From positions 2,542,001 to 2,606,000 of the forward strand of contig JAYWIR010000006.1 in assembly GCA_036172245.1 (NCBI GenBank): 64,000 bases of DNA, in the 5' to 3' direction. The DNA is from Raillietiella orientalis. Its lineage: Eukaryota. Position 1 is the first letter of the stretch; the number at the start of each line of letters is the position of its first letter. Shown here in pieces: positions 18,890-56,270 of this stretch. The notes below the pieces were generated by a model. The model saw only the letters and a program-made list of their open reading frames with translations, was not told the DNA's origin and did no database searches. A program made the translations under genes and the position numbers.

Positions 18890-19375
18890 AACTACAATCA
18901 TTCGAACTGACGAAAGGTAAAGTTCCCAAAGATGTCAATGCAACACAAATCAGCGCAACAACTTTGGAACCAAATCTATCTAAGAGAATACCTGTAGAGG
19001 TTGAAATCTTGAGTCATATCTTCAACCTTAAAAAAAAGTAGTCTTATTCAATTTTCGCTAAGGAACTATATTAAATTTATTGCAAAAAAGCTTTTTCTTG
19101 CTCTTCACACGGGCTAAGGTCGTGTTCAATTTCTTCTGTATCATTAACTTGAAGCGCAGGCAGACGCTGCAGTAAATCTAAGGCAATTTTTTACTTGTAT
19201 CCTCTAAACGGAGTAGCATTACTGAGCCCAAGTTCATTCCTAATTCTACTGTTGCATTTCTAAGTAGCCGTGAATTATTTGCTGTAGTTGCTGCACAATT
19301 GCTAAGTTCTTGCATAGATTTTTCAAACACTTTTTCTCAAACACTCAAATGGAGAAATCCACCGGAGGCAACCCT
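18890..19375 (-). pseudogene. Degenerate MFS transporter (SLC43-like) fragment
   Basis: After a CAG acceptor (exon starts 18991) the frame reads GILLDRFGSKVVALICVALTSLGTLPF, i.e. MFS motif A plus a TM helix. The upstream piece SPCEEQEKAF (about 19085-19115) resembles the SLC43 C-x-x-Q-D/E loop motif but is surrounded by in-frame stops. Confidence 0.4.
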
Positions 19376-20099: not shown

Positions 20100-21300
20100 G
20101 GGGTCGAGGGAAGATGCTCCTGTCCTATTCCGTGGCCGATCATGGGCAGACTTCAGCGGGAATAAATTCGAATGACTTCCCCCTCCAATTCATTCTCATG
20201 AGTTTCGATGTTTTTTTTTTTTCTTCTCCTTTCGAGTGCTCGCGATACTTCCAGGATCTCCGAAAGATCCGTTGCGGTTCCCATGGAAACCAGGATCCGA
20301 TACGATGGCAGATGGTCACGAAAATCATCCAAACATGCCAATGATGAGAAAAAAAGGAAAAACAAAGAGCTGATCTGATGAAGATCTTCATATTGCAGGA
20401 GCCTTCCTTTCATTTGTCGCAGCTAATCCGCAGCCTCCAACATCATCCATCTCATTCCATCCATCACCAAAGACTGAGTTTCGCGAGGAGGGAGACCTCT
20501 GCTGCAAAGGAGGACCAGCTGTCGCTCTGTCATATTGATGGAGCTGAAGTTCTGGATGAGTGCAACTTCCAGATTCGAGCGTATTTCTTTTCTCAGGGTG
20601 CTGGACGCGAGTCCTTTTGCATCGGGCCCGGTCTCTTAGGAACGCAAGGCGACGCAGAGCAGTAAAAGCGAAGGGCAGAGTGTTTGATCTTCCCGTTCCG
20701 TAGAGAAATGACGACAAAGGAGGACAGAAAATCCCATGCATGAGGGGTGCATCATTTCCGTTCCGCGTTCCCATGGAATGCAAGCAAGACTCCTTAGGGA
20801 TAGGGGTCAAGTTCTCTCCCCAACAAATAACCAGTTTCATGGGGGTCATTTCCGCCTATCGTCCATACTTGTGATTGCGGTTGCCTCGAGAAGAGCGCTG
20901 GCGGAAGCATGGGCTGGTGTGGCTCCATTTTAGTCGTCAGCAAGTCTACGGTCCACCAGACCAGGAGCGTCATTTCGCTACTCGCCTGGAGTGAGGGGGC
21001 GCCGAATGCTTTTTCGGTTGCTGGCAGACCATCTCGTTCGGGGATCACGTGGAAATCATTCTGTGGGAATTTCTAGTGTGCAAACTCCATCTCCAGCTTT
21101 CTCAAAACACCGGCTCAGAGCGCCGCTTGCAGCGCTCCCCGCTTACTTTGCTTCCTACTTGAAGGATTGCATACGTGGTGAACCGACCGCCCTACGAAGA
21201 ATAAATGCTCGGGTTGCCTTCTCTCTCTGTTCGTTTTTTTTCCCTAGAAATTCCATGGAATTCCACTGTTATGAATCGTATCATCAACATTGAGGCGGCC
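20100..21300 (+). mobile_element. Penelope-like element relic (RT thumb to GIY-YIG)
   Basis: LIRSLQHHPSHSIHHQRLSFARR (about YL..xSxHP..K...RA) in ORF 20378, and PIVHTCDCGC (about VYxxxCxCG) near 20855-20890. Heavily frameshifted. Confidence 0.4.
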
Positions 21301-24300: not shown

Positions 24301-24352
24301 TCCCACGGTTAATTATCGAACTAAATTATTTTATTTTGTTTCAACTTTAGCT

Positions 24353-25676
24353 ATGCCCTGGCTAGGTGTAGATATAGGAGGAACCCTCGTAAAATTGGTT
24401 TACTTTGAGCCAACAGACAAAAAGGAAGATTGGGAGAGTAATCTGAATCATACTAGTGGTTACTTGAAGGATCACATAGCGTATGGGGCACGGGACTTGA
24501 ATTTGCAAGTAACTCTAAATTTTTTGACGAACACACAATTGGCAAGATCTTGCGTTTATGTTTAGATAGACCATGTTACAATCGGCAAACGGAAAGGAAC
24601 ATTGCACTTTGTTCGTTTTCCAACCTCTCAAATGCCTCACTTTTTCAATTTCTGTAAACAGCACTGCATTCCTCAATTTCCTACTACAGTTATTGCCACA
24701 GGTGGGGGTGCCTACAAGTATGAAAAGGATTTCCAGAATGTGAGCCTACTGAAACTTAATGCTTTATTTAACAAAACCTGTCCTAAAAGTTGGGAGTTTC
24801 CTTTTACAAGTCTGATGAATTTGAGTGCCTCGTGCAAGGCATTCAGAATATCCCTATGCTTTGCCCCAAAAACTGCTACTTTTGGAGTCATCCCAAAGAC
24901 CCCAACAAATGCAAAAAGATGCCTTTTGACTTTAGCAACCCCTATCCTTTTCTGGTTAGTTTTAGATGCTCTAGGTGGGGTACTGAAATGCCTTGCAGAT
25001 TGTGAACATTGGTTCAGGAGTCAGCATCCTTTCTGTAGAAGGTGCAAGTTCCTTCCGTCGAGTCACTGGAACGAGGTGGGGTATCTTTTGCACAGCATGA
25101 AATCATCCCACTGGCAGTTTGGGAGGGGGAACCTTCCTAGGGCTATGCTGCTTGCTTACTGGCTGCAACACGTATGAAGAAGCTATTGACTTGGCAGCTA
25201 GGGGTGATAGCACAAATGTAGACAAGCTGGTTCGAGACATCTATGGAGGTGATTTTGTACGCTTTGGCTTGGCAGGTGATTTGGTGGCTAGCAGGTCAGT
25301 AGGGAGTGTTTAGTCAGGTGAGACTTTGCTGCAGTTTTGGCCAGATGATGTGTGCCAACAAGCGAAACTCAGTATCCAAGGAAGACCTGGCCAGTGCAAC
25401 TCTAGTCACCATAACCAACAATATTGGTTCAATAGCCTATAGCTGTGCCAAAATGGAGAACATCACTCGGGTTATATTTGTGGGAAATTTTCTACGCATC
25501 AATCCCATTTCCATGCAATTGCTGGCGTATGCCATGGAATTCTGGTCAGATGGTAAACTACGAGCCTTGTTCTTGGAGCATGAGGTAATGATTATTGCCT
25601 GTTAGCGCAGTGTAAACATAATGGACTATAGGGCTACTTTGGTGCCATGGGTTGCTTGCTGAACCTTCCTCGGTAG
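24353..25676 (+). CDS. PANK: Type II pantothenate kinase (fumble/PANK1-3-like); exons 24351/24353-24508, 24566-24739, 24790-24954, 24999-25075, 25118-25294, 25335-25584, 25632-25676; 347 aa from ATG 24353 (an upstream coding exon is possible)
   Basis: Motifs include [115 protein letters not shown] and FLEHEGYFGAMG. Six phase-consistent GT-AG introns; a strong acceptor lies at 24350. Confidence 0.97.
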
Positions 25677-26940
25677 TTGTTACAAGGCATTCCACTATAA
25701 ACCTCAGGATCACTCAAAAGTAAAATTTTATGTATTTACTGCTTTATTGTGTTTCTTTTCTTCTTTGCCACCTTTAGGTCTGAGTGAGCTGACAAAGACT
25801 GGTAACAGTGTCTTCTCATGTTGACCCTGTTGCTGAGCATGCTGCTCCACTGTTTCTATTTCTCGCAAATGATTCCAAATGCTAGCCTATCAAAAGAACA
25901 TTGTTTAAGAATTTCCAGAAGGTGGAACAGCTTACTGCATATTCAAGTTCTCTCTGTATGTGCTTACGTAAACTAGGGGAACATTGTACAGGTTGGCCAT
26001 TTTTGTAGGAATAATCAGGATTATCCATTAAACCACCATATGAATTTGGATTAGCAGGTGACCCATGCCTAAAACACTTCTGCTTAAAGGCATGTTTTCA
26101 CTGTTAGACACTTTGTCCTGTTGGCAAATTTTACTATTTCAAATGCTCCACTTCAATTAGTGAATGCAAGCTTCAATTTTCAACTGCAACATGTGGTTTG
26201 TTTCATGCCACCACATTCATAGAAGCTGTTCAATGACATGTAGCACGTAGAATTGCCACATGGTGTGGGAATTTGTCTTAATGCATATACTCACCGCTTC
26301 CTCCACTGTGCTCCAGCACAAACGACCGAATCACTCCGGAAACATGCACACAGCTGCACGTGTGCACCATATTGTGGTTTTAAAATTGAACCTGGGCAAA
26401 AGCATGCTGAGTTAATGACACAAGAAAGCTTTCATTTACCAACACAACACGATACGATTTTTGCCATTCGTCCCAAACTGGCTTTAAGTTATCGCAAAAG
26501 TAATCAACTTCTGTTTCTTCTGTTCTGTGTAATAATAAAACTGAAATAAATCACCCGTGCTTCACCTATTTCACCACCTCTGAGGACGAAAACATGTTTA
26601 ATGAAGAGTTAAACCACATGATGACATCATCAATCATGAATCTGTACGGTACACACACGTTCATATTCGTTTTCCATTTATACCGTCGGAGTGCACACCG
26701 TCATGGGAAAAGATTTTCACCACAAGCACACGTTTTGTGAGTCCCATTGTGCGCCACACCTCCCAGCGTGCTTGGTGATGGGCCCCCGCGTCAAGCACCA
26801 ACCTCCCAGTGCCAGGGAAAGATAACGCCAATTTAACAAATTCTTATCGATGCTTTTATAATGTGTGCACGAAAGAAGAAGGCGAAGAAAAAAAAGGGGG
26901 GAACATTTTCAGGCCTTCGGCGCGTGTTGGGGTGCATTTC

Positions 26941-26944
26941 AACA

Positions 26945-26977
<33 letters not shown>
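26941..26977. repeat. (CA)n microsatellite; similar tracts at 3700-3732 (CA), 9835-9857 (GA), 2068-2085 (ACA) and 38250-38279 (CAG)
   Basis: Directly visible tandem repeats. Confidence 0.95.
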
Positions 26978-27949
26978 GGCAACGGAGTGGCGAAACTCGG
27001 GGGAGCCATCTCCAACGAAAAAACACTCGGAACACAAAAAAAACCTTCCACGGTGTTTCCAGAACGTTTGGCCGAGTGTGCACAAACCGTCGGTGGCACG
27101 CGAAATTCCTTGGGGCTTCGCAAACGGCGTTCCCACGGTTCGAACCCGTTCTTCCCAGGCCCTCCCACCTGCACGATGACTGTGCGCTATCGCCTTCCTG
27201 GTCGGCATTTTTTTTTTCTTCTTTTTCCACGGACGCTCATCCAAGATAAGCATCCACGCGGGTCTTGCAGCACGAGGGCCTCCGGAGGGTTTCTGGGCCA
27301 CCGAGTCGCAGTTCGCGTTCGTTCGAGGAAGACGGGGAAGCAGGATATTCGACGGCGACCCTCTCCCCACCCGTCCCCCCCCCCCCCTTTTTTTTTCCTT
27401 CTTATTTTTCATGTGTGCAAAAAGACGTCGCCCCCCTCTCTCCCCCCCTCCGGCACGCGTGCATTCGAAGGCAGCGTTTCGTGACCTCGGCTGCAAATCC
27501 CTGCTGGCGAAAACTTCGATGGCTCCGCTTTGTTTTTCTCCACCATTTATCCTCGTTCCTTCCATCCTGGTACTGGCAACGGGATCATGGGTGCCAGATA
27601 CTCCGAATCTTTTTTGGTCAGGGTTAGCAAGCACAAGTCCTCCATCCGGATGCGTTGCATGACAAAAGATGGCGGTCGATAGCAAAAAAGGCCGACACCC
27701 TCGACAAGGTGAAGTTCATTTCGATGCATCTCTATTCACCTAGAATCCGTTTTCTATTTATATGAAAGAGCTGTTCCATAGAAAATTCGAATCACACTAG
27801 TTCCACTCAAAGAAGCAAAAGGAAAGTCAGTGTGAGAGAGAGAGAAAATAGAGAGAAAAGCTCTGCTCTTCAGACTGTCTTTTTTTTTTTTTTTTTTTTC
27901 ATTTTACAAAAATAGGCACCGATATGATAAGAAATGGACAAAAACACAC

Positions 27950-30000
27950 ACATCATGATAGAAAAATTGAGATTCTTTTGATTAGTGCGCCTCGTAAAGA
28001 AATCAACGCAACTGAAGCTCTTCCTTGAGAGAGGATTTTTAGAGGTGAAATACAAATTTTCTTTCGACTTTTCGTACAACTTTACACTTAAGGATAAAAC
28101 ACTCTCATTCGAAAGGAACTGCGAGACTCGATACCAAAAGCTCGATGGCCGGATGGAACCGTCCAATAGCCACAGGCAAAGTGTTGAGAAGTTAATTACA
28201 CCAATGCCACTTCGTTTGTTCGGGAGTTTCCCGAGGCCCGATGTATCCCGATGACGTTCCGCCTTTCGGCGGTGCAACCGCATCCTCTATCCTTAAGGAC
28301 GAACCTCCTTTCACGGAAACTGAGGGATTTTCCAGGGCGGCAACACAAAGACTATCTTAATCGAAGTAATGCAAGCTAAAGGGTTCGAAGGCCGATTGTA
28401 CAAATTGATTCCCTTCAGTATGTTCTCCAAGAAAAATCCTCATGCTTCAAACCGGTGGTAGTCGGATCTTCACACCACGGAACGAAAGCGTGCAGTCCAG
28501 GATTCGCTGAAGAACAGGAACATGTGTGTACACGTTGAGGGAAAATGACGAAGCCGTCAGTTAACGTGAGAATTATGCGTCAATACCGATTTGCTAGCTT
28601 TTATTGGGTTTCCAACGCAACGGTCCTCCATGTACCTTTGCGAATGGCGCTGCCAGTGACTGTTATGACTATTGATCACAAGGGGTCCACAATCTCAAAA
28701 GGGCATCGCAAAATCCTCCGAGCTGGATGGGCGCATCAGAACAGATGCTGGCGGAGAGATCGAAGAGATTCATTCGATGCAGCGAGTTGCTAAGTGGATT
28801 CTACAAGCTTCCCCCCCCCCCCGCTCCCCTCTTCCCGGACTCGAGCCCGGTGCATATCGTTTCTCTGAGGACGACCCCAGTTCTTCCCCCTGCTATCTGG
28901 TGCGCGAACAGCATAAGAATCGCTGGATGAAAAAGCCTTGACTGAGAAGGCACAGTTTTTCTTTTTAACTTTCCCGGAATTTTTTTTTTTCATGACATTT
29001 ATTGTCGAATTTCTGTTCTATGCGGCCTTTGATGAGGAACCGCTCAATCTCGAGCGAAACTCCTCAAAACTGCATCTGCTCGAAACGCTAAATTCGCAAG
29101 ATGTGTGTAAGATACTTCTGATGAAAAGCGAGATGAGATGAAATGAGCTAAGCATGCGAATAGGCAGAACAGGAGCGATGAGCCTCGAAAACATCGAACC
29201 AAAACAGCCAACTGGGAGCCAGGAATTTAAAATGCAGGGCGATTGATTCCACACTTCGACCAAGTGCGAACACAGTTGTATTTCCTTCTGATGAGGACGA
29301 ACTATCGTTTGAAGGTCACTCGAAATATAGACAGAGTACCTAAACTTCCAGTGTTTCGGTTTCCCGAAGAAACCTTCACCCCAGGTTCTGAGGAACCCCA
29401 GATGCTGTGTACAGGAACGAAAGGAACCGTGCAGATCCACCACATCGGTGGCAGAATAGGGATTCGAGAAAACTGAACATGGACGAACCTGAGATGTGCT
29501 GGTCTTCAGGAGCAGTCATTCCATCCGAGCTGGTCATTTGAGTATCCAGTGACCGATTTCCGGAGCTTCCGGTGGAGGCCTTTTGCAAGCTCACCATTCA
29601 TCCCTGCAACCAGGTAATTTTTAGCGAAAGGCACGTTGGTTTTGTAGCTCGGGTTGTCGTCTTCGAAATCCGATTGCAAAACATCGAGCCTGAATCGCTA
29701 ACCCTACACAGTGGAGCAACCTATTCGTTGTGAAATTGAGGTTTGCGTGTTGCTCATGATCACGCAATGGTAGCAGGAGAGAGACAACCTTTGCTCTTCT
29801 CCTCACACTCTCTCGTAGCCACCACCTTGGTCCGGAATAGTGGAAGCACGTTCTCGCAAACTCCCAAAGTATCCCAAGGAACTTGGTTCTCATGTTTACG
29901 AAGATCTTGTGAGGCAAAAAGGTGCACCTAACGCTGTCTCTGAAGACTTTCTTACGCCAACCTATATGAAAGCCTTCTACGACTCAACCACGATCTGCCT
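27950..30000 (+). mobile_element. Decayed Penelope-like retroelement
   Basis: FASFYWVSNATVLHVPLRMALP (about FYGLPKIHKxxVPLRPIV; ORF 28545), CFGFPKK near 29352 (about NGYP), and GGLLQAHHSSLQ...RNPIAKHR near 29575-29690 (about GVVYK..C..C...RIxEH). Many stops and frameshifts. Confidence 0.55.
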
Positions 30001-30937
30001 CCAAGGCTCGCTATAAAACTCAGGAAACCGTGGTCAAGTCAGCAACGTCCCGAAGCTGATATTTCGTTCGAGGAAGATACCCAAGAACAGAAGGTTTCAG
30101 AAATGGAGATCCCGATTCTCAGTATTCGAGAGAGGAAACAGAATTTTTCGTTTTCGAGATTTCTTGCAGTGTCTCTTCGTTGCCCTCTTCGAGGCCCGAG
30201 CTGACTGCCCACTTGCAAAAAAATTCGGGCACGCTAACGGCACTGGCAGTGCATAAGAGGCACTTGTAGGAAATTTCGACGACGAGGCGCAGACGCGCGA
30301 GACCATCAAGCAGTCACGTAAGGAAAATACCGCATGGTAAAAAAAAAAAAAAACGGCCTCAGCCTTCTTCTCTTCAAGGAAGTGTTTCTTCCCTTCACAA
30401 TGTTTCGAGATAAAAACTGCCGGAGCGAGAAAAACTGATTTTTGCAGCGAAAAGGCAAACGGTGCTGGACAGAATCCACGAGGCATTATCTTATCTGTAA
30501 ACCCTGATCGCAACTTGGAAACTGACTGCTCGCGCATTATCACAAAGAAGGAAAGGATGATGAGGGTCGCGTTGAGGAATCGCACTCTTGAGAAACATCG
30601 TGTTTGCCCCTCTCACACATTACCTAAATTGGAATGATAATTGAACGAATATATCAGACTAATGACAACAGCCGACTTAACCATGCTTCACTAACGTCTC
30701 TTTGCAGACGGAATGAACCACCGACGTGGTAGAAAAGCGAACAGAACTTCTGGAACGAACTGACGTTAGGAAACGACGGCAAAATAGAAGGATTTGATGA
30801 GTAAAGACGAGAAGAAAAGGTGAGATACGAAGGCGACAGCAGCTGTGCATTTTTGGAGCTTCTGGTACTGCTTCGTATTAGGATGACTGCAGCGCATCCA
30901 GAGTTGAAGCAAGCATTTCGCAAATAGCAGAGTTGGC

Positions 30938-31710
30938 TTTATTTATTTATTTATTTTACAGGCCAGCCAGCCGCCTCATGGGGGGATCCCTTGGACTAGG
31001 ATGATTATCATCCGGGAATGCCGGGGCAAATTTGGGTTAGGATAATGGAAATCCTTTTGGGTTCTTCTGTTTTCGCTGCTTTCCTTCGAGATTTTTCTTC
31101 TTTTGGTTCCCTAAGTACTCGAGAACCGTCCTCGCCACCTTGGGGGTGGGGAAGGGGGGAGTCTCACAAAGCTCTTTGAGCACCGTCCACGCTACCTGAG
31201 GGAGTAGGTTACTACACGCGCCCTCGTGTGGCGTGGAGCTTTGTGAAGCTTCCCAGGGTTATCTCTAACTTGAAGGAGTCGGGAGGAACACCGTATGAAT
31301 CCGGGAAGGCTACGGAGGAAGGAGTCCGTTCCTCTCCCGCTTGGGGGGGAACCTTCCCGCTGGTTCTCTCCGGATGGACCCTCGTAAAAGGACCATTTCT
31401 CATTTCGTCTCCGAAAGGAACCCGGAAAAGATCTGCTCCTTGTAACTCCTCTGAAGGGAGCCCCGAAGGGAGTAGCGCGCTTCTTACACTTTGGAGAGGC
31501 AACTCCAGAGGGGGGAGGGTGGATCCATTTGCATAACCGGAAGGGAACCCTGGCAGGACCCCGGAGGGTCAAATTTCATCCCGCGGGGGGAAAACCGAAA
31601 TCCACGACGCGCCCATTTCCCTGCACGTCGATCCTCCACGTGGGGACTCGAACCCGCAACGTTTGGTTCCGCGCGGCGCAGACCGCATCCACACGGTCTT
31701 CAAAGCGGCC
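30938..31710 (-). mobile_element. tRNA-derived SINE, near full-length copy (about 770 bp)
   Basis: The head carries Pol III B box GGTTCGAGTCC (31644-31654, minus). The body is shared with copies at 44170, 51130, 56970, 57587 and 58975 (e.g. TTGACCC..GGGTCC, GGATTCATA, CTAACTT-GAAG, GAAAGCAGC..AGAA..CC..AAGGATTTCC). An A-rich tail (TAAA)n lies at 30938-30957. Confidence 0.8.
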
Positions 31711-31949
31711 TTCCGCGCTAGTTTCTTTTGTCCATCAGCTCAGAGACTTCAGAAACCACTTGTCAGTGCATGCTTGTGAGAGCAGCACCGGATCAAGCAG
31801 TGGATGGAAACATGCGATACTAAGGCAAATTATTTAAAGATTCATCACATGCAAAGTGCAGATGTAAGACCGTGAAAGATAAAAAAAGAAAGGCAACAGA
31901 AGTTTGGTAGAAAGCCAGGGGACCCAATCTGGAGGGGGTTCGCGGATCT

Positions 31950-33190
31950 CGTTTTATCGCGAGACTCCAATACCCAAAGAAACGTAAGGAGGGGCGAACC
32001 TACTCTTCCCTTACCAGGCGGTCACACGGGCTTCGAATTTTTCCTCAACAGCGATCCATATCAAGCATCTGGAGCTGAATACTGCCTACCGACGTCTAGA
32101 AAAGTCCTCGGAAAGTGCCATCTTCGCAGGCGTTCTGCCTAACCCCAAATAGCGTCTGCAAGCGAAAAAAGTTCTTCGGTCTGGTAGCGAGTGACACGGG
32201 AATCCGGCCTCTTCCCGTATGGGCGAGTTACCCTTGCTCGAAATATTCTGGGGATCTTGCAAAATGACCCGCGCGCGTTGTACTCACTTTACCACTTTGC
32301 AGCGCGGTCGAGTACGAGACGTGACCCGAAGAGTCAGCCGAGTTTTCCGGAGCGAGTGACGTGTGCCGTTTCTTTGGCGATCTTCGGTCCCGCTTGCTTC
32401 CTCGTTGCGAGCCTTCACTGTGTACTGAGTGGTACAACTGTGTACTGAGTTGGCGCTATACAATCGCCCACGACAGGTGGGATGCAGCGTTCGCGGGGCT
32501 CGCTCTCCTCAGCAAGTAGAAATCACCAAGTCGAGCAGAAGGCGTAGCGCTCCGAAGACAGGAGGAGAGATGGCCGGTGAACGCTGCACGCCAATTGCCG
32601 GTCTTGCACCGGCTGGAGGGGTTTGTACTCTTTCGCACTGCAGCAACCCACAGCGCATTCCCTTCGAGAGCAAAATTCTGGTGCTTCACTTTTTTGCTAC
32701 AGTGGAAAACACCCGAAAGATCACGGCAGACTCTGACGAATCACCTCCAATAAAATAAACCAGCATTCAGTTGGGATCGAAGGCCTTATCGGTCTTGAAG
32801 TGTGCGGTTTGACCGAGATCATACAGCGGCTCTCTCCACTCTATGAAACTGCTTTTCCACGCAGGAGCCCGAATTTCAAAATCACACAGATCCGAGCATC
32901 AGCTGCCAACAACCTCGGAGTGCAGCGATGACCAACGAGGGGATTAGAACGAAAAATTAGAGCTAGTAGTGATTCGAGGGCATGCCAGAAGGAGAAAGTG
33001 AACGGGACATTTGCGATCTAAAGAGGACTTTGGGCGAAAATTGGAGGAGAAGGAGTAAGGGCCTCTGAATTCTGGAAGGACTCCATTTTGCAAAGCAGGG
33101 AAAGCAGGGTGAGTGATAAAAAGCGTGTTCAGTGGGGGTCGCACAGTGGTCCAGGACGAATCGAAGCTTTCAACTCTTACTGATTTCATT
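31950..33190 (-). mobile_element. Penelope-like element relic (C-terminal half)
   Basis: The minus strand at about 32330-32485 reads HPTCR../IAPTQYTV..KARNEE...SLA....SGH across frameshifts (about CxxC..YIGxT....RxxEH...SxLAxH...GH). CGLLQ is shared with the copy at about 47810. Confidence 0.45.
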
Positions 33191-34199
33191 TCGATGTTCG
33201 GAAACCATGATTAAATTCTTAAACATTTAAAATCCAGTAATTGCCGGCCAATGGCATTGTGCTGCTGCTCGCCATATTGCGGGTGAAACTTTCGCATGCA
33301 ACTCGCTACACGCAAGCGGTACTACCGTCGGCGTGCGACGAGGTCATCTCAAAGCAGCATCTCAAAGCAGATGAAGAAAGATTAGGAGAAACAAGGAGAG
33401 GGAAAAAGAAGGCTTGTTCACTAATCTTCTGGGTTAACGCTTGCAGTGTCCGATTCACTGAATCTCGTGAGGGATGCTAGTAGGCGATGCTACTGCGTTT
33501 CAGCTGGTCCTCAATTACTGCCACGTTGCCTGCAAAGCAGTTCGGAATCATGGCGATGGGAAGGCGAATTCCATGAAACGTGTGTGAAGTAAGCAACCGG
33601 CATTACTCAGCAACCATGGAAACAACTGGCATTGCAGTGACGAGGCGCACGAGAGCAAGCAACGAAGGAATGCAACTATTCGACAGCCATGTGGTAGAGT
33701 GAGCATCTTCAGATCAACATCCTTTCGCAAGCAACAGGGAAGCATCTGGAGCTGGCACAGACCCCGAATACATGACTGTTTCACGCCGATGTACATCCAG
33801 CATCTCAGATCATTAAATCGAATGCCCAAGTAAACTGCAGCGGCAACCTAGCAAACTGACAAGATTAATGGACCAAAGCTCAACACCGGTGTAGGTGCAC
33901 AGTCTACCTTATTTATTGCAAGTGGTTATTGGTGATGAGATTTTAAAAGTGGGTGTAGCATAATGAATTATTAGAGGTTCTTGGTATGACGTATTTACGT
34001 ATATGGGTGACTTGATATGCTGATGAGCATCACTAAGAGAAGACACGGTTGCGGCCTAGCGTTTTGTTGTCTGAGGCTTTGTCATAAATAAGATATAATG
34101 TAGTCACATGTAGCAACCAGCATAATGAGAGCCCTAGTTTGCAGAATGAATGACCACACAAGGACACACAATTCCCAACATATACTCAAATAGCCTTCA

Positions 34200-35500
34200 A
34201 AATCCTTCCGCTCGTTACCATCATTTGGAGGATAAGGGAGCTTCGTTCTTGAGTATAGTCAGTTCTCAGTATTCCAGCCGAAGAACTTTCTTGTGTGCAA
34301 GCAAGCAGAAGGGCGAAAGACTCGAAGGTTCAGATGAAGACGAAGGAAAAGCTGTTTCTCAGAGAACAACCCAGCAACTCTACTTTTTTGGTAGATACTT
34401 TTCAGGGGGCGAACGGCGCGTCAGGACGTCCTTGGATGGAGCTCCTGGACATCGGCTTTCCAAAAGTGCAAAACCGCCGTGAAACACAGACACAGACGCA
34501 CACGTGGTGGTCCGCGAAACAGAAGCATCAGCGAAGAGGAATCGGAACCAAACCATTTCCGTTGTCGTGTTGCATCCTTCCTCTTCGGAATTCGCAATGT
34601 CGGACGCGGACGGCATCTCCGATGAAGCTCTCGCAGCAGCATCAGAACGCCAGAAGCTTTTTCCAAGATCGGCCTGCATCGACGGTTTGCAGACAGGTCA
34701 CGTTCGGGACGTTTGCTTCAGCTACGTAAATACCCACAAGAGGGGACTCCAATTGCATGCGGTGCGGGACGCGCAGGTCAGCTGCGAACGGAAGACGGAA
34801 AAAACGAGCAAACGAAACTAAAGAAGGAAAATAAAGAAATAAGCGAAATCGAATAGAGCACATCTACAGGGAGGAAGAAGTTGCCGTCACCAGGTCGCTG
34901 CACGGAAAGGATGGGAAAAAGGGGATGGACAGGCAACAGGCATCTGAGACGCCGGCTCTGCAGTCCGTCTGCAGCGCCAGCCATCATCCCCTCATGGAAG
35001 GATGAAGCAAACAGCCCTTCTCCGCAGCGTGGCAGGTCGAGGCTGACTCTCGGATGCGGCAGCTGTTGCCAGGAGTTGCCCGCGTCAGCGGTTGAGGGCC
35101 GAGAAGTAGCGCCGTCGGAATCGAAGATCGGATCCGGAGGTGCGCCCTACGTTTCCTCGGAAACCAACTTGCCAGCACGGATGGGAGCTGCTGGGCGTTC
35201 CTTTCGGCGTTTCCTGAGTGCTCGACGCAAGCCGACCACGCGAAAGCACGCCGGCAGCGTGCCGGAAGGTGTGCCAAGGAAAGAAGTGAAAATACTGGAA
35301 CCAAGCGCGCTGCTCCTTTCCACCACCGGAGGAACCCGGGAGCGTCGTTTCGCCCGATCACTGCCGTGGCACTGTCGTCCTGAGGTCACAAACATGTTCC
35401 TCGCTAGCTGCAAACTCTTCAGCTCAGCGAAATGGTGGTTGTGCCGCCCGACGTCCGGTATAGCGGTGGGCTCCCGAGTCTCCAGCAGCTGCGACCATGC
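34200..35500 (-). mobile_element. Possible Penelope-like RT relic
   Basis: QLESPLVGIYVAE (about MGSPLS..LA) in ORF 34642..34863, with weak downstream RT-like residues. Very degenerate. Confidence 0.3.
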
Positions 35501-36492
35501 TATTTGTCTTTGTATGTGTCCGCGGAACGACGATGCCCGGGACGCCGCAGGCTTTGCGCGGGAGCGAGAGACCCCACTTCCTTCCCCAGCGCGGAGAGAA
35601 AAGCTGCGGGTTCGAATCCCGGCGGGTGAACCTTCCCGGCAGAGGCCGTTCCTCAACCAGGAGCGTCTTCCACAGAGAGGAAGCTGGAGAGGTCGAGGAA
35701 ACGCGTGGACGTTTCCGAGGAACAACCCCAACATTTTTTTTTAATGAAATCAACCATAAAATGATTCTTAAAAATGCCTTTCTGATCATTTAATCAGGAT
35801 ATGTCAATTCATATTGTCAATTTCATTTAATCCCACTGAAACTCGTCAGTAATATACACCTTATGCAACGTGGAATTCCTACAACGCGGGGTACGGGTTC
35901 CGCGTTATACGAGCCCTATGGGTTATACATGGATAATATACTAGGATTCATAAAAAATAAAAAGTGCGCCTTAAATGATGCAGTAGTGGGATGTTCACCG
36001 TCTAAATTCAAAACAAAAAGGGAAAAAGTGAAAGCGTTACTATTTTATATAACTTTAATGAAAGAAAGCTTTTCGAGTTTTGCTGTCAGCTCTTGCATTC
36101 TTGTTGTTGAAAAGTGCATCTTATTGCGCTGCGAAACGCTAGCAAAAAGGAAAAGGAATTTTTTATAACGTGAAAAAAAGCAATAAGAAGAAAAGTCAAC
36201 CAATTTTTAAATGGCGTGTTTGCCAAGAAAAAAAAAAAGAAAAGACAGCTGGGAACCAATTACAGTGCATCCGCAGCGCTGTATGGGGCCGCTTTACCGC
36301 GTTATGCGAGGAAAGTCGACGTTTGCTTTCGTGGCCGCAGTTCTACGAATCCTCGCTGTGCGGGGGGTCTGCTGTGTATTTACGTGATCACTATTTATTT
36401 AAACTATATTCTGGCACGAACCATAGTGCTCATAATGATACTTTCGAGGGGAGTAAGAGCATCCTTCAATTGATGAGCGTCCGAAATTTTGA

Positions 36493-37646
36493 CCCTCCAT
36501 AGGCCCGCGTGACTTTGAAGTCACATACCGGTATAACGATACCCTACTGATGTATTTAATTTTTCACCGCAAGGTGGCACATACGTCTTGTTATATGACG
36601 TCTCCCTGGTAACCAGCAACCGTCTCGGCGACGCATGTCAACTCGAACCCGGTATCTCCAGGTGGATGCTTTTGCAGGTTGTCAAGTGCAGATAAAAGTT
36701 GTTCGAACCATCCCGTGCAGTTGTCATTATTTTTTGTTCTGTCGGTGTTTCGACAAGCAAGAAAAAGCCTACGTAATGGCTCTTGGTTTGTACATCAGTA
36801 ATCTCTTATATGTCTGCACTTAGACAACCATCTCGTTATCATTTTCGCATGATACAGCTTTGTGACTTGAGAGTGACAATGAGCTGTAATGGTGGGATTC
36901 GGTGTATTTGCGATGACGCCTGCGTTTTCTTTTCTTTTTTTTTTTCGTTTTATTTACTGGAGGCCTAAAGCATGAATACCAAAGCATATAAAAATCAAAG
37001 AGTAGTAGGAATAAGAAGCATTAGAGGTAATAGGTCTGCGGGATTCTTCATTGGAATCTGGCTCGGACGAAAATCAGCCAACAGAGTTTACCCGACGACC
37101 TATAAATATTATTGATAGCGACGATGAATTGAGTGGTGAATCATCATCAGATGATGGAAATTTGAAATTAGCACAGAAATTTCATGGCAATCAGTATCCC
37201 ATTCGAAAAACAGTCTCCATCTTCCTTGGAAAGGAAACTGTCCTGGAGATCCTGAAGCACCCTACTCTCCTATGACCTATTTCCCAGAATTATTTGATGA
37301 CGAAATTATAAGTACTACAGTTGACTATACGAATGCATATGCACTGCAACGTGATCCAGCAAAACCCATAGGTGTTGCATCTAATGAAACAGAGCGATTC
37401 TTGGTTGTTTTTTTATATCAATCTACGGGTTGTTTCATGGAATTCCACATTTAAGCTTTTATACGCAAAAGCGCAAACGCCCACCGTACGCCCTTGTAAC
37501 ACCAAAGTTACAAAGCGTATTCGTTATAATAAAATCATTTAAACTACTGAATTCATTATTAATTTGTATGTAGAGGTTGATATTTGTTGACCCCATGTTG
37601 ACATAAATTTTTTTATAGCCTTAAAAGAAATTCGGACTATAGAAGG
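36493..37646 (+). mobile_element. Internally deleted piggyBac-family DNA transposon
   Basis: The ends are TTGA|CCCTCCATAGGCC ... CGGACTATAGAAGG|TTAA (imperfect TIRs; TTAA-type TSD mutated on the left). A subterminal palindrome GTGACTT-TG-AAGTCAC lies at about 36509-36524. A frameshifted transposase N-terminus has acidic DSDDELSGESSSDD followed by YFPELFDDEIISTTVDYTNAYA...ETERFL (37051-37454). Confidence 0.85.
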
Positions 37647-39299
37647 TTAAAAAAAGAATACTCCGCATTCCATAGTATGGTAAAGACACACGCTAATACA
37701 TGCGATTAATTAATTCTTCGGATGGAGGAATGCAGTAATTGTTTTAGTAATTATGCCGACGTGCATGATGCCTGCTGACGTTCGCGTAGAGGCAGCGCCG
37801 CTCACCATTCCGGCGTGCCTTTGCGGCCACGCCACTCCGAACAAGCTCCTGGTTTTTTGGAGGGGTGCAGCCCTGCTTCCCACGTAGGGAAGAGCCGTGC
37901 CATCTTGAGCGTTTGCTTAGAAGATGGCAGTCTGCTGCTCCGCCTCTCACCAGCTCGCAATTCGCTCACTCGTCAGTGTGGCCCTCTTCAAAAACGCAGG
38001 GCTCATGGTGGTTACTTGCAAGTCTGCCGAACTCCCCCCCCCTCCCCGCCTCCCCCCCTTCCCAATTCAAGTACGGGATTGCGGCGTCCGGTGCGTGAAC
38101 GAAGATGACATTTCCGTCCCCTGCGGGCGTGCCACCCTCGGAGATGGACCGTGCAGGCGTTGCCTTTCAGCAGGCGGGAAGAGGCGCTGAGGTGGATCCC
38201 GAAGTACCCTACAAAGACGGCGCAAAGAGCCGCGAGAAAAGACCAGCGTGCAGCAAGCAGCAGCAGCAGCAGCAGCAGCTAGGTTCGAGTTTGGCACCCT
38301 GCAAGACGAGATCCCTCGCCCTCCACCTCGGAGGTTCCTTGCTGAGTTGTCCAGCGAAGGGCAGCTTCGTGCTACCAGCTCGTTGCATCGTACGTCTGTC
38401 GCTTTCACGGAGAGGGAAAAAAAAACGCTTTTGCGGGCTCGCTCTGTTGGTCAGGAGGTCGGATTCGGACGAGGAGCGACGTCCGCGTTCCTCCCTCCCT
38501 TCTCCCCCTCTGTTCATACCGTTTGCCCTCAAGGCTGTCAGGATGTCTTTCCGGCCAAGGTCCAGTTTTCTTCTTGCCGCTCTGTCACGCTTCGCGAGTG
38601 CATCGTCCACCGGGTCCTTTCTTCTCCCTCGACCTCCTGCCATCGCCCTTCCGATAGGCCTCTTTCATCTCGCTTTGGAGCGAGTGGAAAAGGAGGGCAA
38701 AGAGGAGCGGAGAAATCAGAGGGACAGAGGTTGCACCGCTGCCTCCACACAGCCTTCTCCACGCTCTGGACTGTCGTGCAGCTTAAGATCCAGCGGCTGC
38801 CCAGTGAGGTCGCTGCAGCTCTCTCCGGGGGAGAACAAGAAGTTGGAAGAGGGGGGGGGGGAAAGGCGCCACAATCTTATGCGCTCCGCTTCGTGCAGAG
38901 TCTGCGCAAAGGGAGCGAACGAGCGAACGAACGAGATGGTCCGTGGACCACCTCCCTCCGTACTCTTCCTTCCTCCTCGTTGTCATCATCAGCGTCCCGC
39001 TCATGATCACCATTCTGATAGCCGTCATCACAAGAAAACACTACCACCCGTTTTTCCTTTCCTTCCCCTCTCACTTTCGTACTTTCCCCTTCCCTATCTC
39101 TTGCCTTCCTGAGGAAGGGCGGGAATGTCCAGGGATTGGGCGAGAGTGGGACCGCAGGACTGAACGCTGACGGTGTTGGTCTCGGAGCCACCACCACGTG
39201 AGTCCCCCACTCCTTGAGCGCGGGACCCTGAGCTGAAAATCGGGCGAGGACGCAGCGGGCTGCCAGGTGACTGGAGAAGACCGAACGACCTTTCCTGCC

Positions 39300-39750
39300 G
39301 CCAAGTCCCCTTCTTCCTTTGCTGGTTGTCTTCGCCCGCACTGTCGCCATCCAGGGATCACTCTCTCCGGTCTCGACCCCTGGAAACCTTCTCCTGCAAT
39401 TCCTTCCTCCTTTTTCCCTAGCGCCCCTCCGCACATGAGCCCTCCTTCCTTCTCGGTCCTTCTGTGCACCCGCGCCTTCATGAAAGAAACGCCGAGCGAC
39501 TCCTGAAATGGGGGGAGTTTCCCGGGAGTCCTCGGGAGGTAAGTAAGGAGACAAATCCCGTGGTTCCTAGAAGTGGGGAGTTGCGACGCGGATGATCCGA
39601 AGATTTCAATTCCTGCTGGGATGGCAGCCGGCTGTTGCGGCGGCTGGGGTGAAGCAGGCTCGCGTGCCGATGTCTGGAGCTTCGGTGACGGAGCTGCGGT
39701 GGCCCGTTGTATCAACCCCAACAAGAAACCTTCAGCTACAGGACGGAAAA
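39300..39750 (+). pseudogene. Degenerate, apparently intronless protein-kinase (TK/TKL-like) fragment
   Basis: SRADVWSFG (subdomain IX) is preceded by KISIPAGMAAG (about PxxWMAPE) in ORF 39573. VHPRLHERN (about IHRDLxxRN) lies upstream in another frame at about 39464-39490. Confidence 0.4.
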
Positions 39751-41379
39751 GGAAACGAGCCACGTGACCTTCGAAGTAAATCGGCGAAAAGTTTTGCACA
39801 GCTACCTGAAGCCGACACAGCAGCCTTTTTTCACCTTGCGAGAGCACCGGAAAAACTGACCCCAATTATCGGTATCCCAAAGGTAAAGACACACAAAGAC
39901 ACCCACCGTGTGATCGCATTCTACATTCTACGCGTTCAACTTGGACCCACAGTCTGTACACTTGCCTCTAATGCCCCGAGGTTTATTCGTTGTGAATGAG
40001 AATTCAGTTCACAAGACACCAGCAATCATGAGCGCCAAAAACGTGTATGGTTACTAATAGCGTCTGTGTACACTTAACCATTCGTCAGTGCAATAATTTT
40101 TCGTACTGAGATTTCTTACTAACGAGAATGTGCAGAGGTGCCACCATCTGCATTCATACGCTACAAATATTGCAATCATTCTGTACAATACCTTTCTGCG
40201 TATTACAAGCACTCCGTCCTCTTGCTAGCCAGCATAAACTTCATCTGGGCACCTATCCCTACATCCATCAGCCTATCGATGATAATCTCCTCCCTCCGCT
40301 TCCTGTATGCTTGGGGCAGAAGTTATCCTCTTTATGTTGCCAATGGTTCCGATCATGTGTGGACACTCAGTTTTCAAAAACACGAAGTTGGACTCTTTGA
40401 AAATCCCCGGCAGAGCAAATTCATTCACCGACTATCACCTATTTGCACCACGCGGACCATCCGCCCAGGAGAAACATGGCTGCTCCGACAACAATAGGGA
40501 GCGACTTCCGGATCCGAGTCCATGTGGGGAAGCGGCTGGACCGCGTTCCGGATCTCTCTATGCTTGCGTCGTTGTTGCTGGTTTTCACGTCCGTCGCTTG
40601 GGTGCATCGTAGGGGGTGAGCAGCGCGTGGCGGTGGGCACAGCCGTGGTGCGATTTCCCTTGCCGTTGCGATTTGCCCGATGCAGGCAAAAGCGTGCGCC
40701 GTGCGGTTATACACGGAAGCAGAGCTGACGCGAGGTGTGCCCGTTGGTGGAAGCTCCACGAATAGATGGATCTCAAGAGGGATCTTGTTGGCGAAAGGAA
40801 TGGGGAGTAGGGGGAGGGGGAAACATGGATAGGTGTTCTTATGGGCCATATGAGGTCGGGGGCGGGTGAGGGTATCGCGATGACTTGGCAGTAAGCAGCG
40901 CTGTAGGGCAAGTTTGTTTCCTCGTGGGGCAAGTTCTTGCGGAGCTTCCGGGTTCTCTGGCGTCCGATACGCCTAATCCACGGCGAATCAGTGCATTGAT
41001 GAAGAATAATGAGGAATCCTATTGAAGGCAGAATGGAAACCAACTGTGGATGGATTGGTACTAAGTTGGGTGGATGCTTTTTGGGGTCGAGAAAGGTTCA
41101 TCTGAGAAGAGCAGCTTGATCTTCCCTAGCCCGACTCGCGGCGGGGTGAATTGATTCATAGAAACCATTCGCTCTGCAGTCACGCGAACAACACAAAACT
41201 GATGCGGCCCGCGCGGGTACGACACGGCACCGTCCTGGCCGCACAGCTCAGCATCCTGAGGCAATGCAGAAGAGTGAAGAGCTGGAACTCTTCCGCACGC
41301 CCGGATGTTCATTCCCCTTTTCAGGAGCCCTGAAAGAGCGTCTCGGTCAGTGCACGCATGTCCGTGGGTCAACTTAGTC

Positions 41380-41720
41380 CTTCTGACGAGGATGGTCCTT
41401 AGGAAGAAGGCGACGACCACCCGCACTGTGGGGTTGTAGCGGGGAACGCCTTCGCCTTCGAGGAGTCCTCGCAGGATTCCCAGCGCCGATGTGTCCTCCA
41501 TCTATGACGCCCTCTTCACCGCTCTACGATCCCGGACGAGGGTTCGACAGGCATAGATGTGTAGGTCGTCTTCGATCGACCCACACTCTGGACACCGGTC
41601 GGTGCCTCCTCGTGCCGCACAGGATGTCTCCGTGGTAGAATATCAGCATGAAAAAACACGCGAGATGCCTCACGAGGGTGACCTCGTCGTTAATGTTCGA
41701 GTCTGCTCGGTGAATGTCAA
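41380..41720 (-). mobile_element. 3' fragment of a LINE ORF2 (CCHC zinc-knuckle region)
   Basis: The minus strand at about 41555-41610 reads DRCPECGSIEDDLHIYAC (C-x2-C-x8-H-x3-C). It continues past a stop into ORF 41061..41501. Confidence 0.55.
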
Positions 41721-41936
41721 GCAGGCACGGTTCCGTGTTTTTTCAGATCATTCGTAATTTTTTGATGAGCTGTTTTGACCATTCCCTCGTGGATACAGGA
41801 TTGTCATCTTTCAGATATTCCATTACTCTTTTTGAATTGTCGCACGAGTCGATCATATCACGTGCAACTTGTGCATCTTTGGAATCCATGGAGAATGCTA
41901 TCCGCTTTTTATCAATTGATGCAGTACGAAAAGCAA

Positions 41937-42044
41937 ACTCCGTCATGGCTTGCGCCCATGATGGTTTTTATCAAGCCATTTGCTTATCTGGCAAGGCCTA
42001 TAAGCTTATCAATAAGGCTTGCTGCAAACATGATTAAGGGTCAT
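41937..42044 (+). pseudogene. atpB: Fragment of F0F1 ATP synthase subunit a, probably from an alphaproteobacterial endosymbiont (Wolbachia/Rickettsiales-like) insertion
   Basis: [36 protein letters not shown] matches the subunit-a signature R-P-x-S-L-x-x-R-L-x-A-N-M-x-x-G-H. Both conserved Arg residues use AGG codons. Confidence 0.85.
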
Positions 42045-42645
42045 ATCTTGACCACGCTGAGGTGGCTCAATAATCAGCCAGTTAATTGCTGTCACGGATG
42101 AAGAATTGCATCTGATGAAACTTTTTCTTCCACGGTTTTTAATTGGGTGTTTCGATGGGAAATTATAAAGCACTTGGGATGAGATGATCTTTTGTGTGTT
42201 ATGATAAGCGGAGGTGTGGCGATCACGGGAGATGAGGAAAAGGGGGGGGGAAAAAAAAACGATGTCTAAAGCAGAATGATAAATGAATCTTCAAAAGGAT
42301 GTGGAAACAGACATTATACACGAAACAAAAGGAAAAGTTACCAAAGGAACAGATGGACTTTTTTATGGACGGTCCAAGCTTGCGAAACTTTGCTATTTCC
42401 GTGTTGGATCAGGCACTTTGAGGGATCGGGGCCGATATTGAGGGATTGGGATCGATGGCTTGTCTTGTCTGCTGGCTACCGTTGGATCGGTCCTACTAAC
42501 TGCAGTCGTGTACGGCTGCAGTTTAAATCCGAGGGTAGCCAGTGGCTTTCATCTTGGAGCAATGTGCAATCTTTTTCGTATGGGGGGGCTCGAAGCTTCC
42601 GTAGTTTTTATACATATGTTTGTACATGTACCGCCGCAGCAGGTA

Positions 42646-43655
42646 CAGTGCACGCTCCATACAGTAACCTTTGATAAAAGAAACTTTCGACATAAGCGAC
42701 CCTTGATGCGGTCAACATTTTAAGCTTTCCGTCGTCCGACAAAAGAAACTTTTTCTCAACCGCGTTAAAGACGGGCAAAAATAAGAGAAATCCATCAGCT
42801 GTCCCAGCAAAAATTTAGATGCTCTACGTGAGGTCGAAAGGGGAACGAAGGTAAAAGTGCCGTGTTTGAGTTGCAACGTGGGTCGGTCAACGGTTTCGAA
42901 AATCGTGAAAGACAAAGTAAATTTGGAGGCCAATGGTAGCCTCACGCTGCCGTGTCCCGAAACTCCTAGAAATGGGATGGCGATCTCGAAATGTCCCGAA
43001 ATGTGGAGCGAGCGCTTCACATTCGTGGCTCTTGCAGCAACAGCGAGACTGGAAGACCACCATCACGAATGGAATCTCAAAATTGAAGGCCAAGGAAATT
43101 CATGGTCGGTTGGGATGTGATGGGGAAATTTGGGGCCAATGGCGGGTGGGTGGCCCTGAGCAGCTTCAAAAAAAAAAAAAAAAAGACAGGGTATTCGCTT
43201 ATTGACTCTATGGAGCATGCAGAAGAAAATTTGGATGAAAGTGACAGATGTTCAAAAATTTGCCAAAGTCATTGACCACTCCTTCAATTTAGCTACGGAG
43301 TGGTCAGAACGCGTCTGCCTTCTTGTTCGTGATGCTCTTCTCTCCTGAGAAGAGTACGGGAAAAGGCAATTGGTGAAGAAGTTTGAGTAAAATTTCATAC
43401 CGTATCGTCATCATCATTTACTGCATAAGCCATCATTATTTTTTACCTCTGTAATGTTACTGAATTTGCTCATTTAAGTGTAAAAATTCACAATTTACTG
43501 TTCCACAATTTGGTTTCTTTCATTTCATCATCCCCAAAAAAGATTCATTTTTTTAATTTTTTTTTTCATTTCGACTACCCATCTCGACATTCTATAGAGG
43601 CGACGTTTTTAGAATTTCGATTCCAGAAAAAGGTGACCGTGTCGAATGCGCACTG
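42646..43655 (+). mobile_element. Internally deleted pogo/Tigger-type (Tc1/mariner) DNA transposon
   Basis: TA|CAGTGCACGCTCCATACAGTAACCTTT at the left and AAAGGTGACCGTGTCGAATGCGCACTG|TA at the right form an imperfect 27-bp TIR with TA TSD. A broken CENP-B/psq HTH reads LDALREVERG...NVGRSTVSKIVKDK, followed by WLLQQQR...LKAKEIH. Confidence 0.85.
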
Positions 43656-44169
43656 TACAAGTTTTTTAATGGCGCTGCGAGGTGTGTTTTCTGGGGACGG
43701 CGCCCTGGAGTGCGCCTTGCAATGGTGACGTCGGCGAGGGTACGACACATCGACTTGACAGTGTAGAAGATTCTGGGGTAACCAGCGAGGTGATGAGGTA
43801 TTGGTGACCAGTGGTCTAGATGATTCAGTAACGGATGTCACAAGTTGATGCATCAGAAAGGGTATAAAAAGTACGGGGTTTAGGGTATGAGGTGATGAAT
43901 AGCATGCAAGGTGACTCCGGTCGTTATGCAGGGATTGTGGTAGGGATAGGCGGATTTTTTGAGGAGCTGGGTTGGAGGTTAACAAGTAGATTTACGTGTC
44001 ATCTGAGCTACTGATTGCGTGGTGCTGAGTCACTTATGCCGGGTATCAATGAGATGTCTGAGAAATAAGGTGGGTACGCGGCCTAGGCGTGCGATCAGTG
44101 TTTCAGATGTGTCCTTATGAACCCTACAAGCTTGTTGTAGGGAGGGAAGTGCATGCTGCAAATGCGCCC

Positions 44170-54010: not shown

Positions 54011-56270
54011 GCTAAGCTAAGTAAGTTAAGTTTGCCCGTCCTCGCAACGTGACTTCAGTCACATCGCGAGGATGCCACAAGTTTCACTCATCGGGATGTC
54101 CTGTAGACTGTATTTCGGCGACTTCTGCCTTTCCCGTCCAAGGTCCTCTTCATGACGTTTTGGGAATCATCCGGTAATCTTCAAAGCCGATGAGTCCAGT
54201 AAGCATCGCGAGTGTAGCGGATGCACGAGATGACCACGAGCTGTCTCATTTTATCCGCGTACATCCGCGGGACACCCTGCTCACGGAGAACGGCTCGTTT
54301 CTGGTGTTCCCAGTTCCCAAAGGGCCAATCATGATGGCCTTTGAAAACTTCGACATCGACTCCTTTCTTGGATTGCAGGTTGGCAACATCTTAGCACACC
54401 TTCTCATTCCTGGAGATGCTGAGAGCTTCGTACCCGTCCTCGAAGGAGCCAGCTACACCCAGCATCACCATCGTCTTGCTTTTCTATAATACCAGATCTG
54501 GCATCAGGGTGGCATCAAAAGCAGGGATGCCAGTTTCTCGGACACTGGTTTCCATCTTGCTGTTTCTGTCCTTGCTATTTTGATCTCTTGCTCTATCGCA
54601 TCGTGCCGGGCCGTGTACAGACGACAGCGCCTCATGCAGTGGTCTGTCATGTGTCACGAGGCAACGTCTCGTCTCACAGGCCACAATGGGAGCACGAGAG
54701 ATTAGCTCACCCTTTTCTGCCAGCTCCTTCCATGAAAAGCAGATTTAGCCTCACAGCGTGGATAAATCTGCAGTCTGCAAGTTCTAGTTGGTCCCCATTT
54801 GTAAGAAAGCAACTCGAAGAATCATGCAATTGGACGCGGAGCATGGCTTCCCCTTGACCTGGGAGCTTCTCCGCCAGGGAATGCCATGTTCCCTCGCGCT
54901 GGGCAGCTCGTACGAGGAAAATCCCTCCTCATGCTGACACCAAGAATCAGCTCGCCGATCCGGATTGTCGCTTCTTCTTGAAACTTCCAAACTGCTCCTG
55001 ATATGGACAGCGAAAGTTGATCTCAACGAAGGTTGTCTTCCAATGGCCCACAAGCTCTGTGTATCCCCACTCGTTCTGGAAAACTTCCCAGATGTGAGCG
55101 GCGACATCTGGAAGATCACCCTCCGTTGAATGTCAAAAGAATTTTCCTTAATACCACCCCACAGCGAGTTTCTTGGGCTCATGTTCTGACGGCATCATTC
55201 GGTGAGGGTGATTCCCTGAAGCGCAGTCCATGATGAAGGTATCAACCTCATCTGAGAGCTTCACGAGACCAAGATAGCTCTTTTTCCTCCCTCCATAGTG
55301 GCATTCATCAGCTACCCTAGACGGGTGGTGCAGCAGTGTCCTGATTGTGCGCCTCATTTTTGTTATCCAGATATTTCCGGTTCTCTTTCTCGTGCGTTCC
55401 TAGTCTCCCGCAGTGTACGAGACTGAGGAAGTAGAAGGTTTCCATAGCATCAATTTCTTTTGCCAAGCATAGAGACCACATTTGAGGATGCATTCGGTTT
55501 TGGCAAGAATTTCTTCCTTAGAGGGATGGTTTTTGAATACTTTAATCCCAACTGCTCTTCCTAGATGCTTGTAGGCCTCTGATGAATTTAAGTGGGCAAT
55601 TGAACCACAGTTGACATTCAAGTCCCACGGTCTCAAGTCTCGACGGCTCTCACCACAATAGGAAAGGCAGGAGCATTTGGAAGGATTGATTGCTTGATCA
55701 GCCTCACCAACTGTGCCCTCAATGGAGCGTATCCCATTGCTTGGAGCCTCTTGGGAATCCGCAAGGATGACCGAGTCATCGTCATGCGCCACAAGGACAT
55801 CCCTGCCGTAACTCACCCTCACTGCACGCAGGATTGGTTCGAACGCTAAGATGAATGGGAGTGAACTCAAGGGACATCCCAGTTTCACTCCCTTGCTGCA
55901 GATGAAGAAGTCCTCGTTACGGAGGACTCCAGCTGAATGTGCGCAAGCCGGTGCACAGGCCTTCAACGATGTGAGGGAAAGCGAGCCCGACTCCAGCTTC
56001 TGGTCGCGCTCTTCGCACTGTGGTATGCGAGTTGGTGCAGAAAGCACTCGAAAGGTCGACGGAAACCATTCCAAGAGCCACGATCAAACCATTCGAATGG
56101 CATCCAATCGCCTCTGTGAGGCAAAGTTCTGGCCAAGACCTCCATCGAAGCACAGAAGTCCCTTCTGCTGGGGAATGACGACCTCTTTGTTTTCCAGGAT
56201 CCGTTTCCGCAATTCTGCCTACTGTCAATGCAACTGACTCCAATTGCTGACCTTTTCTAGTATGCAGTCC
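54011..56270 (-). mobile_element. 5'-truncated, frameshifted RLE-type non-LTR retrotransposon (NeSL/Utopia/R2-like)
   Basis: RT motifs: PQQKG..DG, DLSSAF, GVKLGCPLSSLPFILAFEP, VAHDDD, INPSKC, YKHLG and GLYAWQK. ETLPH-like CCHC and RHDAI-like remnants occur at about 54590-54675. The RLE reads MPDLVL..VMLGVAGSFEDGYEAL...NEK. It has a 3' UTR hairpin and a short (CTTA)-repeat tail. Confidence 0.9.

Follow-up and report, generated by a model that had tools for sequence, protein, structure and literature searches.

A 315-bp mosaic of broken Wolbachia genes in an assembled contig of Raillietiella orientalis, very probably an old and inert nuclear transfer

Three gene pieces at 41731-42045

In the 64,000-nucleotide stretch of contig JAYWIR010000006.1 of Raillietiella orientalis that was analysed (the window; positions are counted from its first letter), a mosaic of three broken gene pieces is located at 41731-42045. 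The pieces derive from grpE (minus strand), tkt and atpB, are 143, 64 and 109 bp long and adjoin one another to within 0-3 bp. The outer breakpoints were determined by register-by-register comparison with the Wolbachia loci and are at 41730|41731 (host to grpE) and 42045|42046 (atpB to flank). A first-pass annotation had marked 41743-42180 as probable endosymbiont DNA of a Wolbachia- or Rickettsiales-like kind. Protein and DNA matches to Wolbachia bear this out. Bacterial DNA is present in the marked interval, yet the true limits are those given here, and 42046-42180 had no bacterial match. The description as an AT-richer block was accurate: GC is 0.40 in the block vs 0.58 in the 500 bp on the left. 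The block and its flanks comprise the following features.

41061-41730, no strand: left flank, taken as host DNA; GC 0.56-0.60, no Wolbachia similarity, no detectable protein family
41731-41873, minus strand: Wolbachia grpE fragment, about residues 79-125 of a GrpE of 188 amino acids (nucleotide match and NCBIfam on the source frame)
41874-41876, no strand: grpE|tkt joint; 3 bp in neither piece, or, with the grpE match carried on to 41878, a 2-bp CT overlap
41877-41940, plus strand: Wolbachia transketolase (tkt) fragment, about residues 5-26, beginning 13 nt past the start codon (nucleotide match and TIGR00232 on the source frame)
41937-41940, no strand: tkt|atpB joint with a 4-bp microhomology, ACTC; tkt matches to 41940, atpB from 41937
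41937-42045, plus strand: Wolbachia atpB fragment (F0 subunit a), residues 148-185 of 241 (BLASTP, blastn, Pfam PF00119)
42046-42262, no strand: right flank (GC 0.43) up to the end of a G9A9 run; without bacterial match; possibly, but not necessarily, brought in with the block

The plus-strand frame 41937-42044 matched the Pfam family ATP-synt_A (PF00119) with E 1.3e-11 and 45.2 bits (cut-off 33.9), and 34 of 38 residues of the piece were identical to residues 148-185 of a Wolbachia AtpB. This substantiated the core of ATP synthase subunit a that had been proposed for 41937-42044. The piece contains the essential arginine of the RLxxNM motif. When 5.8 billion proteins were searched, 72 of 73 candidates had E<=0.001. 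Wolbachia AtpB was on top (E 1.3e-12, 84-89% identity), and every named match among the 72 came from Wolbachia, Ehrlichia, Neoehrlichia, Midichloria, Rickettsiales or another alphaproteobacterium. By blastn, 32 of 71 alphaproteobacterial atpB loci were matched; the best were Wolbachia with 90-92% identity over 95-109 bp, and lower values were obtained for three further named strains of the genus (77-79%) and for Ehrlichia (77%). Across 17 Wolbachia genomes the nucleotide identity was 75-93%, the best being 93.4% over 106 bp. The blastn E-values of 1e-36 to 1e-38 are far beyond chance. The resemblance to Wolbachia AtpB, which had been put forward in the first-pass annotation, was thus confirmed at the protein and at the nucleotide level.

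Alternatively, the piece could in principle be a NUMT, a nuclear copy of mitochondrial ATP6, whether of the host itself or of another eukaryote. A comparison with solved structures did place mitochondrial ATP6 chains first (E 2.9e-7 to 4.5e-4) and the named chain of an alphaproteobacterium after them (E 1.1e-3). Little can be concluded from this order, as none of the solved chains came up to the match level of the Wolbachia proteins. Against a NUMT stand the nucleotide identity of 90-93% to Wolbachia atpB, the adjoining grpE and tkt, neither of them a mitochondrial gene, and the protein matches, none of which was named mitochondrial. Thus, the BLAST comparison that had been recommended as a check ended with Rickettsiales, i.e. 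Wolbachia. A host NUMT had been considered unlikely from the start as both conserved arginines were read as AGG. They are indeed AGG (41994-41996 and 42015-42017), and the same two codons are AGG in nearly all aligned Wolbachia. The codon argument is sound, though the identity in nucleotides weighs more. A mitochondrial origin is refuted for practical purposes. A motif of 36 residues and its codon usage were enough for recognising such an insert without tools.

The grpE piece was 81-87% identical in nucleotides to 16 Wolbachia genomes, and its source open reading frame (L077:1266-1832) is a GrpE according to NCBIfam (E 4e-40). Relative to Wolbachia it carries two insertions (+2 bp and +3 bp); after ...LKDDNPV the reading passes into another frame. 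Of the 17 Wolbachia genomes compared for the tkt piece, 16 had 83-94% nucleotide identity over a stretch of 58-64 bp, and the seventeenth (L116) had 78% over 81 bp. Its source frame (L080:1496-3451) is a transketolase (TIGR00232, E 3e-249). With these assignments the origin of an opposite-strand frame became clear, which had been described as fused to the atpB fragment, as running from 41743 to 41946 and as being of unknown origin. The frame is real, runs from 41743 to 41967 and encodes 74 amino acids; it is composed of sense grpE, frameshifted, and antisense tkt. A match of this frame to Ribosomal_S15 (E 0.03, below the cut-off) was discarded as spurious given this composition.

Two open frames run across the block, one of 74 and one of 110 codons, as might be seen if bacterial DNA had been domesticated as an expressed gene or exon. 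However, sense, antisense and frameshifted pieces are mixed in each of them, and conserved residues are replaced. In the atpB piece there are two replacements at sites that are invariant in Wolbachia, L to P and A to K, and the invariant MIAGH beside the essential arginine reads MIKGH. Domestication is therefore extremely improbable.

Joints, decay and descent of the block

The pieces of the block mapped to three unlinked places in 5/5 Wolbachia genomes (41500-42700 was searched). In a complete genome, G005 (C1), the grpE, tkt and atpB sites are at 54.7, 666.0 and 187.4 kb, respectively, and in complete Wolbachia genomes the source genes are hundreds of kb apart. In the window the grpE and tkt pieces are joined directly to the atpB piece. 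This agrees with the scrambled multi-fragment insertion that the first-pass annotation had suggested. An exact 30-mer across the tkt|atpB joint had 0 matches in metagenome contigs. From one public read run (share 0.09), examined for 40800-43000, only two 151-nt contigs were obtained, 42342-42492 and 42764-42914, neither of which touches the block.

All or part of the block was matched by 60 of 60 genomes of the genus Wolbachia; the best identities among them were 87% for grpE, 94% for tkt and 93% for atpB. Of 197 sites that are invariant in 16-17 Wolbachia genomes, 15 are changed in the block, i.e. 6/78 at first, 8/91 at second and 1/28 at third codon positions. Because an even spread is expected without selection, the changes at first and second positions indicate neutral decay. 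Together with the abutting of unlinked pieces and the frameshift in grpE, these changes are incompatible with a living bacterial genome. They also bear on the question whether the block is an assembly artefact in which reads from a living Wolbachia were misjoined to host sequence. Wolbachia contamination is common in arthropod assemblies. Yet with the 64-bp tkt piece placed between pieces from distant loci, reads would have had to be misjoined twice in a span of about 70 bp, which fits into a single read. Furthermore, grpE is frameshifted, the 15 changes are mostly at codon positions 1 and 2, the best identity of each piece to any of the 60 genomes is just 87-94%, and the same architecture occurs again at 18.4-19.5 kb. 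An artefact is thus very improbable.

In a tree from a 312-column concatenate the block was nested within the genus Wolbachia. Its sister clade (UFBoot 87) comprised eight genomes (G002, G014, G028, G032, G038, G042, G043 and G045), among them the Wolbachia endosymbiont of the cicada Tettigetta isshikii (G042) and a metagenome-assembled genome (G002). The terminal branch of the block was 0.083, and those of the other tips were <=0.05.

Flanks and further Wolbachia pieces in the window

The first-pass annotation had placed a LINE fragment at 41380-41720, directly to the left of the block. This could not be reproduced: neither a reverse transcriptase nor an endonuclease nor another family was found in the flank. 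Fourteen frames of 40442-41757, compared with Pfam at E<=10, yielded nothing but two sub-threshold zinc-ribbon matches. Two flank frames at E<=1 contained no reverse-transcriptase or endonuclease family, and a frame with stops read through (41064-41642, minus strand) had 0 matches by HMMER among 1.84 billion representative proteins. A reverse-transcriptase fragment (RVT_1, E 9.6e-8) is present elsewhere in the window at 55400-56083 on the minus strand, a relic of a retroelement. It emerged from a Pfam scan which covered 134 of the 195 frames of the window with >=100 amino acids plus 20 long ones.

Since an adjoining LINE fragment was not detectable, the proposal that the pieces had been captured during retrotransposition is not supported. 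A related possibility is that the unit 41725-42261 is a secondary copy or the product of capture by a non-LTR retrotransposon; LINE machinery would have inserted a transcript or cDNA of the mosaic and left a tail and a target-site duplication. Directly after the G9A9 run (within 42245-42274), ATGTCTAAAGCAG at 42262-42274 resembles ATGTC-AAGCAG at 41714-41724, and the minus-strand frame 41502-41642 shows a CX2CX7HX3C pattern, which we take to resemble the C-terminal zinc knuckle of a non-LTR ORF2. The candidate duplication is weak, however, as 75 of 2000 shuffles reached its score and the repeat was found by seeking one. Further points against this route are the flank without any recognisable family, as detailed above, and a mosaic without a second copy: neither 40001-44000 nor 17001-23000 recurs inside the window. 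We consider retroposition quite improbable.

On the other side, 42046-42300 had no significant Wolbachia match by DNA or by two translated frames in 5 genomes, nor in the 60 genomes of the genus. Three weak matches in 3 of 61 genomes of the family were inside a repeat-rich protein gene and were discarded for this reason. No Rfam family was found in 41000-43000. Wolbachia similarity was absent from 1-18361, 22001-41730 and 42046-64000. Upstream of the block the window contains the following features.

18362-19548, no strand: second, older Wolbachia mosaic of about seven pieces of 67-252 bp, with gaps of -4 to 46 bp (Wolbachia matches)
21717-21900, no strand: third Wolbachia-derived piece, 184 bp; 73-79% nucleotide identity to 15 Wolbachia genomes
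24566-24760 and 25303-25602, plus strand: animal pantothenate kinase (Fumble family, Pfam PF03630), two exons, apparently intact, with an intron-sized gap between them

The kinase gene was matched by PF03630 with E 1.8e-9 in 24566-25177 and E 1.7e-30 in 25303-25602; profile positions 105-230, the central part of the domain, would have to be in shorter frames between the two exons. The sole relative of the first exon was from Armadillidium nasatum with 52% identity (1 match of 2 candidates). The second exon was 67-76% identical to insects, molluscs and vertebrates alike among the best 120 of 944 matches. About 2.7 kb separate the 184-bp piece from the first recognised kinase exon downstream of it. 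The source frame of this piece in Wolbachia (L137:1472-2269) has a GNAT acetyltransferase domain according to Pfam. The mosaic at 18362-19548 draws, among other loci, on putA, glmS, a tape-measure gene of a prophage tail, a gene of the YGGT family and a place 1.4 kb away from the origin of the atpB piece. Its pieces are of mixed strands, and their order is non-colinear in G005.

The upstream pieces, located 20-23 kb before the block, are more decayed than it. Compared in the same 10 genomes, 14 of 226 genus-invariant sites were changed in the block vs 61 of 396 upstream (Fisher p 5e-4), i.e. upstream decay is about 2.5 times greater, an age contrast between the clusters that rests on six short pieces. 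In a 604-column tree the upstream pieces had a branch of 0.30 (block, 0.083) and an unstable position; this tree keeps 13 genomes, G002, G011, G013 and G022 having been dropped for too few sites. On the simplest reading, the region seems to record at least two Wolbachia transfers of different age. The age contrast could partly reflect different donors, the older layer then being derived from a different, more divergent one. The piece 18999-19196 and the atpB piece, 23 kb apart in the window, derive from sites about 1.4 kb apart in Wolbachia (in G001:C7, for example, from 75638-75833 and 77240-77348). Probably this proximity is a coincidence, for which our own arithmetic gives a chance of roughly 0.06-0.14. 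A single event for all clusters is unlikely despite these neighbouring sources, because the upstream pieces are the more decayed ones.

The older layer at 18.4-21.9 kb has about 15% change at genus-invariant sites and the younger one at 41.7-42.0 kb about 6%; both consist of shards of 60-250 bp whose sources are scattered over the whole bacterial chromosome. One may speculate that the 25-kb stretch has captured Wolbachia DNA repeatedly over a long period from an unsampled lineage, a scenario which we regard as unlikely. If it were true, the DNA would enter the host already shattered or by way of template-switching repair, preferentially at a break-prone region, and the association between host and Wolbachia would be long or recurrent and datable from such fossils.

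Probable origin of the block and known counterparts

Collectively, the data argue strongly that the block is a non-functional nuclear Wolbachia transfer (nuwt) which descends from a past germline infection. Most probably, the transfer is genuine, old and inert. Its nuclear location is read solely from the assembled context, namely GC-rich non-bacterial flanks and an intron-bearing animal pantothenate kinase gene 16 kb away. The following course of events would be consistent with the block. Wolbachia would once have been present in the germline of ancestors of the host, and bacterial DNA would have been released in germline cells. The host's end-joining repair (NHEJ or a microhomology-mediated form) may then have linked short pieces by their ends, with capture of the product where a chromosome had broken. 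After insertion the block would have drifted neutrally.

Instead of a capture of joined pieces, one large Wolbachia insert, from tens of kb up to a whole genome, could have been collapsed later to short remnants by deletions and rearrangements. Such an origin is possible, if rather unlikely. In G005 and in G032 the three pieces are on the same strand and in an order that fits one pass round the circular genome. The microhomology at the joint would also fit deletion by microhomology-mediated repair, and for other hosts large inserts have been described to decay by deletion (PMC4046930). Yet by our own arithmetic, three points share a strand and a compatible order by chance in about 1 of 8 cases, and the upstream mosaic is mixed in strand and non-colinear in G005. 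In addition, Wolbachia gene order varies between genomes; therefore, colinearity with today's genomes is a weak test.

As a nuwt, the block would mark the host lineage as a past carrier of Wolbachia, and the donor lineage is not closely matched by any of the 60 genomes of the genus. Annotators should call the atpB-, grpE- and tkt-like frames at this locus neither host genes nor signs of a live infection. With clean breakpoints and two age classes within 25 kb, the region is a small, defined case for the joining and the decay of bacterial DNA in an animal chromosome.

Transfer of DNA from Wolbachia to animals is already well documented and the block alters no concept. With the f element of the woodlouse Armadillidium vulgare it would share the fixation of Wolbachia DNA in a chromosome of the host. 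That element is of great size and distorts the sex ratio, whereas the block is tiny, broken and almost certainly inert. Named isopod-type and other named Wolbachia strains were included in the searches and were not the nearest relatives of the block. A likeness in structure exists to mosaic organelle insertions (numts, nupts, 'numins'). For these, Portugez et al. (2018, PMC6215612) describe unlinked fragments that NHEJ joins head to tail, prior to integration or in its course, with microhomologies at the joints and signatures that erode with age. Here, too, several unlinked foreign fragments are joined with short microhomology; unlike there, the donor is a bacterium, and a single joint (4 bp) is clean enough to be read.

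Parallels in kind are cases in which pieces of Wolbachia genes are found in the chromosomes of a host. Most nuwts of the filarial nematode Brugia malayi have 100-200 bp (Ioannidis et al., 2013, PMC3849323). The Brugia nuwts stay highly similar to the resident strain and some are transcribed, whereas no sampled Wolbachia is closer to the block than 87-94%. The lungworm Dictyocaulus viviparus, a nematode, carries nearly 1 Mb of such DNA (Koutsovoulos et al., 2014, PMC4046930), compared with about 1.6 kb seen in one 64-kb window in the present case. As in the window, the Wolbachia-like DNA of the lungworm is fragmented and has frameshifts. There, frameshifts and stops and the linkage to host genes were read as the record of a lost infection (Koutsovoulos et al., 2014).
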